64,000 nt of DNA from assembly GCA_017676145.1 (NCBI GenBank), contig GCA_017676145.1_3628.1; one strand, 5' to 3'. Source of the DNA: a phage. This document shows, piece by piece, positions 41,385 to 42,420 of the stretch; positions within the stretch are counted from its first letter, which is position 1; each line of letters opens with the position of its first letter. A model generated the notes under the pieces. The model saw only the letters and a program-made list of their open reading frames with translations. It did no database searches and had not been told where the DNA came from. A program made the translations under genes and the position numbers.

Positions 41385-41461
41385 TGGTCTCCACGGAGTG
41401 ATTCGAACACTCGACCTCCTGATCCCAAATCAGGCGCTCTACCAAGCTGAGCTACGCGGAG
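41385..41461 (-). tRNA. tRNA-Pro (anticodon UGG)
   Basis: hand-folded cloverleaf: acceptor CTCCGCG/CGTGGAG, anticodon loop TTTGGGA, T-loop TTCGAAT, 3' CCA encoded. Confidence 0.7.
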
Positions 41462-41472
41462 TATTTATAATT

Positions 41473-41547
41473 TGGTGGCCCTGGGTGGAATTGAACCACC
41501 GTCTGGCGATTATGAGTCGCTTGCTTGAACCTTCCAGCTACAGGGCC
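41473..41547 (-). tRNA. tRNA-Met (anticodon CAU; could be Ile2 if lysidinylated)
   Basis: acceptor GGCCCTG/CAGGGCC, anticodon loop CTCATAA, T-arm GGTGG-TTCAATT-CCACC, CCA encoded. Confidence 0.65.
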
Positions 41548-41548
41548 A

Positions 41549-41624
41549 TGGTGCTGATGGCAGGACTTGAACCTGCAACCTATTGATTACAAATCAATTG
41601 CACTACCGATTGTGCTACATCAGC
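41549..41624 (-). tRNA. tRNA-Thr (anticodon UGU)
   Basis: acceptor GCTGATG/CATCAGC, anticodon arm ATTGA-TTTGTAA-TCAAT, T-loop TTCAAGT, CCA encoded. Confidence 0.7.
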
Positions 41625-41629
41625 AAAAA

Positions 41630-41728
41630 GGTGCTAGGTGATGGAATCGAACCACCTATGTATTCAACGACTACCTCGTCTATTTTCAGGATTAAAAATC
41701 CTCGCCCTTGCCAAAGGGCTTACCTAGC
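41630..41728 (-). tRNA. atypical tRNA-like gene, anticodon UUU (Lys) candidate, with about 30 nt variable region
   Basis: perfect 7 bp acceptor GCTAGGT/ACCTAGC, D-arm GCCC-TTTGGCAA-GGGC, anticodon arm GAGGA-TTTTTAA-TCCTG, T-arm GGTGG-TTCGATT-CCATC; extra hairpin GACGA-GGTAG-TCGTT in variable region. Confidence 0.45.
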
Positions 41729-41826
41729 GCAATATGTTGACCATGTGGCTAGTCGGCGATGACGACTGTAACATTTGATAATCCGGTTCTGCTTCCGGCT
41801 TTCGCTTAATTACAAGGTCAACAATG

Positions 41827-41917
41827 TGGCGGAGAGTAATGGAATCGAACCATCATCGAGTCATCCTCAACGGGACGGTTTTCAAGACCGCTTGAGCACC
41901 ATTGCTCCCTACCCTCC
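41827..41917 (-). tRNA. tRNA-Ser (anticodon UGA), long variable arm
   Basis: acceptor GGAGGGT/ACTCTCC, anticodon arm GCGGT-CTTGAAA-ACCGT, T-loop TTCGATT, CCA encoded. Confidence 0.65.
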
Positions 41918-42031
41918 TTTATAAATTACACTGATAATGACACTGATTTTCGAGCAGTTAGTGACTAGTATAAACGACGATAAATATCAATGCCATTATC
42001 TGTATGATTTATGCATTTAAAAATATAAATT

Positions 42032-42119
42032 TGGTGGTGAGTGATGGAGTCGAACCACCCGAATCGCAATGATAACAGATTTACAGTCTGCCCCGCTACC
42101 CCTACGGAATTAACTCACC
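42032..42119 (-). tRNA. tRNA-Tyr (anticodon GUA), long variable arm
   Basis: acceptor GGTGAGT/ACTCACC, anticodon arm GCAGA-CTGTAAA-TCTGT, T-loop TTCGACT, CCA encoded. Confidence 0.65.
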
Positions 42120-42249
42120 TAAATACTAATATTTAAATTCTTTTTAAAATAGCTAGTGTTCTCACCACTAACTATGAGGTATCGGTAAAGTGGTTACCGC
42201 CACTTGCCGAAGATTTACTCTGCTAAAGTAAGCTACATTAAAAAGAACT

Positions 42250-42324
42250 TGGCACCCCGTACTGGACTCGAACCAGTGTCAACGGCTTAGAAGGCCGCTG
42301 CTTTATCCACTAAGCTAACAGGGC
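42250..42324 (-). tRNA. tRNA-Arg (anticodon UCU)
   Basis: acceptor GCCCTGT/ACGGGGT (two G-U pairs), D-arm GCTT-AGTGGATA-AAGC, anticodon loop CTTCTAA, T-loop TTCGAGT, CCA encoded. Confidence 0.65.
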
Positions 42325-42420
42325 ACTGGGTGGCTTTCTTTTACACCTGAGCCGCCAGAAAAGGTGGGAGACCATGTTTACAATATTACACTGTTAAGCA
42401 AAGTTTGTCAAGAAAATATT

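Follow-up and report, generated by a model that had tools for sequence, protein, structure and literature searches.

The 64,000-nt stretch of phage DNA analysed here (contig GCA_017676145.1_3628.1; hereafter the window) belongs to an rV5-like coliphage (Vequintavirus), and its tRNA cluster includes a 99-nt cloverleaf at positions 41630-41728 on the minus strand. This element, which we call X, is a genuine tRNA-shaped gene, beyond anything a chance fold would provide, and represents an undescribed family of phage tRNA-like RNAs whose members have been annotated inconsistently. The reading we favour, at a probability of roughly 0.45, is that X would be a non-decoding tRNA mimic, processed like a tRNA, whose loop baits or competes for tRNA-recognising proteins, most plausibly immune tRNases. 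The first-pass annotation of this DNA, made from the letters alone, had placed the element at the correct coordinates without giving its strand, and had taken it for an atypical tRNA-Lys with a UUU anticodon: possibly a cleavage-resistant replacement or decoy or, alternatively, a degenerate pseudo-tRNA.

Read 5' to 3', the first half of X is GCUAGGU AA GCCC UUUGGCAA GGGC G AGGA UUUUUAA UCCU G and the second half AAAAUA GACGA GGUAG UCGUU GAAUACAUA GGUGG UUCGAUU CCAUC ACCUAGC A CC. Its parts, with the evidence for each, are as follows.

41630-41728, minus strand: the whole of X, 99 nt including A73 and CC (ARAGORN, Rfam, family covariance model).
41722-41728, minus strand: acceptor 5' strand GCUAGGU, pairing with 41633-41639 (covariation).
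41633-41639, minus strand: acceptor 3' strand ACCUAGC (covariation).
41630-41632, minus strand: discriminator A73 with C74 and C75 (sequence).
41704-41719, minus strand: D arm, GCCC-UUUGGCAA-GGGC, with A8 and A9 at 41720-41721 (covariation).
41687-41703, minus strand: anticodon-like arm, composed of G26, AGGA, UUUUUAA, UCCU and G44, with UUU at 41694-41696 (covariation).
41681-41686, minus strand: 5' flank of the variable region, AAAAUA, single-stranded and conserved (alignment).
41666-41680, minus strand: variable-arm hairpin GACGA-GGUAG-UCGUU (a hairpin stands at the equivalent site in every lineage).
41657-41665, minus strand: 3' flank of the variable region, GAAUACAUA, single-stranded and conserved (alignment).
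41640-41656, minus strand: T arm GGUGG-UUCGAUU-CCAUC (all five pairs standard in all sequences).

Much of what had first been described is borne out by the sequence: the acceptor stem is a perfect 7 bp, in the UUUUUAA loop the anticodon position is taken by UUU, the anticodon stem is flanked by a G-G opposition, and the insertion put at about 30 nt proves to be 31 nt (G42-A72, including the flanking G) between the anticodon and T stems, with a hairpin inside it, where the class I body of a tRNA-Lys(UUU) has a variable loop of 4-5 nt. The D and T arms, which had been called normal, are so only in part; the 5-bp T stem, the UUCGAUU loop and the 4-bp D stem stand, but the D arm is atypical in having A8 and U14 where the usual tRNA has U8 and A14, and both departures are invariant in the family. 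Fold prediction allows the D stem to be extended to 6 bp with a 4-nt loop (GCCCUU-UGGC-AAGGGC), a possibility on which covariation is silent because the two extra U-A pairs never vary in the alignment. The anticodon arm of the window copy can be drawn either with 4 bp and a 7-nt loop or, in the minimum free energy (MFE) fold, with 6 bp and a UUU triloop. The base after C75 is U, leaving the CCA end incompletely encoded.

The MFE of X is -34.2 kcal/mol (z = -3.66), and none of 200 shuffled sequences folds as well. Scoring by a covariance model and by ARAGORN had both been proposed as checks. With the Rfam tRNA model (RF00005) X obtains 35.5 bits (E = 4.5e-5), above the gathering score of 29, the UUU being aligned as the anticodon and one anticodon-stem position being deleted; ARAGORN also calls a tRNA, but of undetermined type (tRNA-???), and finds no transfer-messenger RNA in the window. 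The particular fold that ARAGORN draws, with an AUUUU/AAAAU stem, an 8-nt loop and a 4-base anticodon "atcc", can be rejected, because the U run on which it depends occurs only in Vequinta- and Avunavirus, making it impossible in the other genera, and because it leaves four bases unpaired after the D stem.

Similarity and pattern searches followed by a covariance model brought together more than 30 distinct homologues from six phage genera. They are found in phages of Vequintavirus, Avunavirus, Seunavirus, Mydovirus and Henunavirus and in metagenomic contigs, and the model built from X sequences picked out a further copy, at 73.9 bits, in Justusliebigvirus, a phi92-like genus of a different subfamily, where it is present in 31 records and annotated as a tRNA in none of them. 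The window X scores 105.5 bits with the family model R1 and is the only full copy within the window. A loose scan for the D-arm pattern returned mostly chance matches, together with one new family member (L111). Judged by these matches, X is common to two groups of large enterobacterial phages, the Vequintavirinae and the phi92-like phages. Homologues from Av-05, PVP-SE1, BIS47 and Hena1 fall below the Rfam tRNA threshold.

Covariation was assessed on an alignment of 29 sequences and 24 base pairs, or 696 pair cells. Standard pairs occupy 99.6% of the cells, and 10 of the 24 pairs show changes on both sides; the covariation score of 0.417 compares with 0.152 for column shuffles, none of 500 of which reached it, and with at most 0.083 when pairing partners were slid. 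Support extends to every stem. All seven acceptor pairs are standard in 29/29 sequences, with 3:70 and 4:69 changing on both sides; three of the four D-stem pairs covary, as do three pairs of the anticodon-like stem; and in the T stem, where all five pairs are standard throughout, 51:63 covaries. The acceptor/T architecture is 7/5 in all aligned sequences. The elbow pair 19:56, a tertiary contact between D loop and T loop, occurs as G-C in 17 sequences, as U-A in the other 12 and never as a mismatch, a switch that argues for a true L-shaped fold.

Conservation goes well beyond the stems. Mydovirus copies are identical at 107 of 109 nt amid adjacent tRNAs and spacers that have diverged beyond reliable alignment, and in 18 Seuna- and Mydovirus copies the only unpaired variation outside the variable-arm hairpin is a purine at position 9 (R9), loop positions 2-3 and one change at loop position 5. 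Purifying selection on X is extreme. The variable region follows a single plan in all members: a conserved 5' flank, a hairpin at a fixed position and a conserved 3' flank. In the 5' flank, G-AAAA(UA), the G-AAAA is invariant or nearly so across genera, and in the 3' flank AUACAUA is invariant in all 29 aligned sequences. The hairpin between them, of 3-10 bp, keeps its site while its sequence and length are wholly different between lineages; pair A53-U59 becomes G-C in Avunavirus. The flanks, at 7 and 9 nt, are unlike those of class II tRNA variable arms. Pairing between them was considered and rejected; AUGUG/UACAU is possible in Hena1, and the complement is lacking in other lineages.

The part of X that does change is the anticodon-like loop, and its length and sequence differ between lineages as follows.

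Vequintavirus: 4-bp stem, loop UUUUUAA.
Avunavirus: 4-bp stem, loop UUUAUAA.
Henunavirus and Justusliebigvirus: 4-bp stem, loop CAUCAAA.
Metagenomic contig L033: 4-bp stem, loop AAUCAAG.
Metagenomic contig L043: 4-bp stem, loop GUGAUA.
Seuna- and Mydovirus: 5-bp stem, loop C-N-N-C-C-A (CAUCCA, CAGCCA, CCACCA, CCGCCA, CUUCCA, CCUCCA), with CCUCAA in one.

The invariant G26 and G44 enclose 14 nt in L043, 15 nt in the four genera Vequinta-, Avuna-, Henuna- and Justusliebigvirus and 16 nt in the Seuna- and Mydovirus copies; the enclosed length is 17 nt in the host tRNA-Lys gene lysT and in other working tRNAs, among them a phage tRNA-Asn with equivalent G26/G44 anchors. No X lineage has a canonical arm, which would combine 5 bp with a 7-nt loop bearing U33 and purine 37; U33 itself occurs only in Vequinta- and Avunavirus. 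Nor is the lysine anticodon a conserved trait: UUU is confined to Vequintavirus, the orthologues having UAU, UCA or the 6-nt C-N-N-C-C-A loop. It follows that UUU is derived and specific to this one genus, and that lysine decoding cannot be what the scaffold is conserved for.

What remains of the lysine connection is local. In Vequintavirus the loop and lower stem copy host tRNA-Lys: GAUUUUUAAUC of X and GACUUUUAAUC of lysT match at 10 of 11 positions, and the one mismatch, U for C32, also separates the phage tRNA-Thr(UGU) from host thrU. The window copy has both UUU and A73, which we take to be identity elements for lysyl-tRNA synthetase (LysRS), A73 being presumably the lysine identity base. 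A type II tRNA-Lys decoding AAA is in our view the less likely option. A similar copy is seen in Mydovirus, whose C-CUUCCA-G equals C-CUUCCAA-G of host glyT minus one A, with U73 in both. More generally the discriminator follows the loop, being A73 in Vequintavirus and U73 with an encoded CCA in the N-C-C or UCA lineages (Seuna-, Mydo- and Henunavirus); Avunavirus, with UAU, has U73 or C73 and no CCA. These pairings fit synthetase identity rules as we presume them to be, A73 with UUU for lysine and U73 with NCC for glycine.

Loop positions 2-3 are the only differences separating the NDO71, K54lambda and L042 copies from their closest relative, L038. The pattern is striking, but positive selection on these positions is not supported, the flanks being so diverged that it is equally well accounted for by a simple lack of constraint.

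The Seuna- and Mydovirus clusters hold another gene of this kind. A tRNA just upstream of X (L005:619-694, L006:618-694, L008:551-626, L009:551-625) keeps a GAU core in a loop of 6, 7 or 8 nt that has neither U33 nor purine 37 (ACGAUUC, AAGAUUC, ACAGAUCC, ACGAUA), and some copies are returned by ARAGORN as tRNA-???(agat) or (ga). This makes it, after X, the second tRNA-like gene here whose anticodon loop is remodelled.

From these features we propose the following course of events. X would be transcribed with the tRNA cluster and yield a stable RNA of about 97 nt, presumably excised by the tRNA-processing enzymes of the host, since its acceptor/T-arm stack, elbow and N73-CC(A) end are all authentic. 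It does not appear to be built for decoding, the anticodon arm being 1-3 nt shorter than that of working tRNAs in every lineage. With the rest of the molecule nearly frozen, the loop, which varies in length and sequence between genera, would act as an exchangeable bait, and X would occupy or compete for proteins that recognise tRNA shape and the anticodon stem-loop; the leading candidates are host immune tRNases. In Vequintavirus the bait would be a copy of the anticodon stem-loop of host tRNA-Lys(UUU), the commonest target of such nucleases (PrrC, the PARIS effector AriB, a bacterial Schlafen). What the sequences themselves show is the fold and its conservation, an anticodon arm that is not canonical, a variable loop, likeness to host tRNAs and the genomic context; transcription, processing, the absence of decoding and the interaction with defence nucleases we infer. 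A more ambitious version, that the family is an RNA anti-defence system in which an RNase P-compatible scaffold displays an exchangeable bait loop, acts purely as decoy or competitive inhibitor and is retuned to the nuclease repertoire encountered, is one we put forward tentatively, as a doubtful extension.

The anticodon-nuclease context that the first-pass annotation had invoked finds support: the X cluster carries tRNAs attacked by known immune nucleases (PMC12409363). AriB cuts the tRNAs for Lys(UUU), Thr(UGU) and Asn(GUU), severing them between positions 40 and 41, and also makes contact with the D loop (PMC12409363, PMC11464382); it reads C40-A41 and the D-loop residues U16-U17. A bacterial Schlafen cuts tRNA-Lys(UUU). 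Among the isotypes of the cluster, Thr(UGU) and Pro(UGG) are reported AriB substrates and Tyr a target of retron-Eco7, and Pro, Thr, Met and Ser are reported targets of ApeA, the match with the cluster being one of isotype (PMC12409363, 10.64898/2026.01.26.701840, PMC12673091). T5 escapes PARIS with variant tRNAs (PMC12409363, PMC11464382), and the AriB study itself raises the possibility of competitive inhibition by viral tRNAs (PMC12409363).

X is also dispensable. In phage V18 (L011, 677-743) there is only a 42-nt 3' remnant of it, directly before tRNA-Thr, the deletion having removed tRNA-Tyr, tRNA-Ser and the 5' 57 nt of X—a natural knock-out—and X is absent from phAPEC8 and from a T5-like phage. 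It is therefore accessory, which fits with accessory anti-defence genes, often likewise dispensable. Recent capture from a host was considered and rejected, no similarity to X being found in 5,426 E. coli genomes even at E = 10; the X T-arm signature has no match in 185,579 bacterial and archaeal genomes.

Several observations weigh against X being a mimic of this kind. The 16 conserved single-stranded nucleotides around the variable-arm hairpin are not explained by a decoy, and may point to a different, specific partner. The joint change of discriminator and loop, in keeping with the presumed identity rules, hints that charging may matter. The loop CAUCAAA is shared by both Erwinia phages and E. 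coli phi92-like phages, and does not fit well with a bait matched to the local host. Vequintavirus phages are reported to be sensitive to retron Eco2 and Ec2ApeA, so that any protection by X is not general. Finally, we found no paper on X in the literature on X itself, on tRNA-like RNAs of Vequintavirinae or on phage tRNAs with long variable arms.

The strongest competing explanation, unlikely in our estimate yet deserving serious consideration, is that X of Vequintavirus is a working, nuclease-proof substitute for tRNA-Lys(UUU): LysRS would charge it through U34-U36 and A73, it would decode AAA and AAG, and its large variable region, altered D arm and C40-C41 in place of C40-A41 would block binding or cutting by immune tRNases. 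The 7-nt loop with U33, UUU and A37-A38, the discriminator A73 and the near-identity to the lysT stem-loop are what such a tRNA would need, and X differs at position 41 from the C40-A41 read by AriB. BASEL phages have it annotated as a tRNA-Lys reading AAA, and rV5-type phages have no other tRNA-Lys (PMC3606486); in phi92-like phages a canonical tRNA-Lys(UUU), Tyr, an 85-nt tRNA-Asn and Thr(UGU) lie side by side. There is also a precedent for inserting a variable arm on a class I isoacceptor, the tRNA-Asn(GUU) of 83-86 nt present in 651 phage records. The T5 tRNA-Asn helps to rescue PARIS toxicity (PMC12409363). It may carry the insert, as copies in T5-like phages do. Against this, the anticodon helix of X is 1 bp shorter than those of lysT and the insert-bearing tRNA-Asn, which should misplace the anticodon relative to the acceptor end, and in the MFE fold the loop is reduced to a UUU triloop. 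UAU is combined with U73 or C73 in the sister genus, which encodes no CCA, and 6-nt loops or A33 occur in other genera. LysRS is a class II enzyme, with which a 31-nt variable region may collide.

That X instead has a sequence-specific partner outside the immune nucleases, a phage or host protein or RNA reading the elbow, G-AAAA and AUACAUA, we regard as improbable. The anticodon-like hairpin would then be a structural strut whose loop drifts freely, and X might regulate or sponge up a tRNA-binding factor, or carry an aminoacyl group in a non-ribosomal reaction. In its favour, the flanks of the variable region and the D and T loops are invariant between genera in which the tRNAs next to X have strongly diverged; loop positions 2-3 appear unconstrained, and an equivalent scaffold carries different loops in two phage subfamilies. 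However, the loop is not simply free, since four of its six positions (C..CCA) are conserved in Seuna- and Mydovirus, and we found no candidate partner; nor did either flank have complementary sites beyond chance within the 64-kb window, a result that led us to reject an antisense regulator acting through them.

A recoding tRNA, descended from a tRNA-Sec-like opal (UGA) suppressor and later retargeted to other codons, among them a quadruplet GGNN if the Seuna- and Mydovirus loop is read as 8 nt, is very improbable. Like tRNA-Sec (RF01852), X has a long variable arm, and a 6-bp D stem closing a 4-nt loop is a possible fold in every copy; Henunavirus and Justusliebigvirus have UCA in a 7-nt loop, the Hena1 copy being annotated tRNA-sup(tca), and tRNA-Sec is the best Rfam model for the homologues outside Vequintavirus, at 23-39 bits. 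Every score is nevertheless below the cut-off of 47, the highest being 39.0 (Hena1); the stack is 7/5 and not the 13-bp 8/5, the homologues have U73 not G73, and the UCA copies have A33 for U33 and a 4-bp anticodon stem. The window X, with UUU and A73 rather than UCA and G73, is further removed still, and misreading of the abundant AAA codon would harm the phage. Identity as tRNA-Sec was rejected on these grounds.

A decaying tRNA pseudogene, the alternative offered at the outset, or a functionless processing spacer might be thought of in view of the loss in V18, the absence from phAPEC8 and the inconsistent annotation (tRNA-Lys, tRNA-OTHER, tRNA-TERM, ??? or nothing), but we dismiss it almost entirely, given compensatory changes in all four stems and one tertiary pair, near-identical copies amid flanks diverged beyond alignment, invariant unpaired segments and very strong purifying selection over six genera.

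The tRNA-shaped gene is labelled inconsistently in deposited sequences. About 90 phage records contain the identical 99 nt, entered as tRNA-Lys (BASEL phages, among them Bas49 (EmilHeitz), whose copy is 100% identical), tRNA-OTHER, tRNA-???(atcc) or tRNA-TERM, or without annotation, and over 200 deposited genomes label the X gene tRNA-Lys, tRNA-OTHER, tRNA-TERM, "hypothetical protein" or nothing. The BASEL annotators report having used tRNAscan-SE. The rV5 genome paper lists six tRNAs and omits X (PMC3606486). Such inconsistency skews the analysis of tRNAs and codon usage in candidate therapeutic phages. Some 18 records of "Campylobacter phage" (MG0656xx) match the region at 99-100% identity to E. 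coli Vequintavirus genomes and are probably mislabelled or contaminant assemblies.

The surroundings of X in the window comprise the following.

41385-42324, minus strand: tRNA cluster holding X, in the order Arg(UCU), Tyr(GUA), Ser(UGA), X, Thr(UGU), Met/Ile2(CAU), Pro(UGG) (ARAGORN and Rfam; annotated in related genomes).
42383-42411, minus strand: sigma-70-like promoter, TTGACA, 17 nt, TAATAT (consensus scan, 10/12 matches).

Many deposited genomes match the 1.1-kb tRNA region at 97-99% identity. The predicted promoter lies some 60 nt upstream of the cluster's first tRNA, and all seven genes from Arg to Pro, X included, are probably transcribed from it as one unit. The tRNA-Tyr(GUA) gene (42035-42119, minus strand) is missed by ARAGORN, found by Rfam at 39.0 bits and annotated in related genomes. 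The CAU-anticodon tRNA (41473-41547, minus strand) is tRNA-Met according to ARAGORN and most records; BASEL has it as a tRNA-Ile reading ATA, which implies a lysidine-modified tRNA-Ile2. In the relative OR062943.1 (phage 241Ecol014PP) an HNH endonuclease gene is inserted in the equivalent cluster.

Two spacers of the cluster are themselves structured. The 98 nt between tRNA-Ser and X (41729-41826, minus strand) are closed by a long-range stem, UGUUGACC/GGUCAACA, with hairpins within (z = -2.2), and the 3' part of this spacer is kept upstream of X in other Vequintavirus contigs. The 130 nt directly 5' of tRNA-Tyr (42120-42249, minus strand) adopt a multi-branch fold with an 11-bp closing stem (z = -3.4), have no Rfam match and are missing from most Vequintavirus genomes. 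This second spacer recurs in 177 phage records from unrelated groups, with up to 98.6% identity in Phapecoctavirus and also in Justusliebigvirus and, at about 80%, in T5-like phages; it again lies directly 5' of tRNA-Tyr in phAPEC8 and Spc35, and in PaulScherrer a tRNA-Lys intervenes. It looks like a conserved or mobile non-coding element travelling within these tRNA clusters.

Cleavage of tRNA is a major bacterial antiviral strategy, employed by PrrC, PARIS, the retrons Eco7 and Eco2, ApeA and Schlafens, and the one RNA counter-measure documented consists of a phage tRNA bearing a few protective substitutions. If X is indeed a tRNA mimic, it would represent a second solution, mimicry instead of replacement, in which elbow and acceptor end are kept exact and the loop alone varies; X offers a candidate for RNA mimicry against tRNA-targeting immunity that can be put to the test directly.

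Among the closest known systems is the PARIS-resistant tRNA-Lys(UUU) of T5 (PMC11464382, PMC12409363). Like X it is phage-encoded, lies in a tRNA cluster, has a near-host UUU loop and is altered near the AriB cleavage and contact sites, and both belong to E. coli phages exposed to tRNA-Lys-targeting immunity. Unlike X it is a canonical class I tRNA of 76-79 nt whose anticodon stem has 5 bp and whose variable loop has 5 nt (in the Spc35 copy), and it has been demonstrated to remain uncleaved and to rescue infection, whereas X, known from its sequence, has a 4-bp stem, a 31-nt variable region and A8/U14.

The insert-bearing tRNA-Asn(GUU), with its GAAA-capped variable hairpin (e.g. L129:3722-3807, L130:6166-6248, L131:1071-1155), occurs in T5-like, phAPEC8- and phi92-like, T4-like Klebsiella and Pseudomonas jumbo phages; Asn(GUU) is itself a reported PARIS target. 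It shares with X a class I anticodon combined with an extra variable hairpin, the G26/G44 anchors and a place in clusters beside Tyr, Lys and Thr, so that class I anticodons on extra-arm bodies are not unique to X. It has a canonical arm of 5 bp and 7 nt with U33, a hairpin of 3-4 bp on short flanks and G73-CCA; X in contrast has a shortened arm, long conserved single-stranded flanks and an "anticodon" that changes.

With canonical elongator tRNAs X shares the 7-bp acceptor stem, 5-bp T stem, UUCRANY-type T loop and 19:56 elbow. With class II tRNAs (Leu, Ser, Tyr) it shares a long variable arm with a stem-loop, present in every lineage, but no lineage has a Leu, Ser or Tyr anticodon and the flanks of 7 and 9 nt are conserved; in class II tRNAs only 1-2 unpaired nucleotides flank the variable stem. 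Allo-tRNAs also have a long variable arm and, like X, a possible 6-bp D stem with a 4-nt loop, on an acceptor/T architecture of 8/4 or 9/3, and this identity was rejected, X being 7/5 in all sequences.

T4 RNA species I and II are stable RNAs encoded among the tRNA genes of T4 (PMC2330249). Like X, these small non-tRNA RNAs of no known function lie within a phage tRNA cluster and are presumably co-processed with it; a sequence relationship is not evident, and X is a full five-arm cloverleaf with an elbow. As to RNA mimics that phages direct against RNA-guided or RNA-binding defences, pseudo-ToxI offers a comparison. This non-coding RNA of phage phiTE is a look-alike that defeats a host system; it mimics an antitoxin repeat where X would mimic a tRNA, and no mechanistic link between the two is known. 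By analogy it may nonetheless be taken as a precedent, in that phages of the wider group can beat host systems by means of an RNA look-alike.

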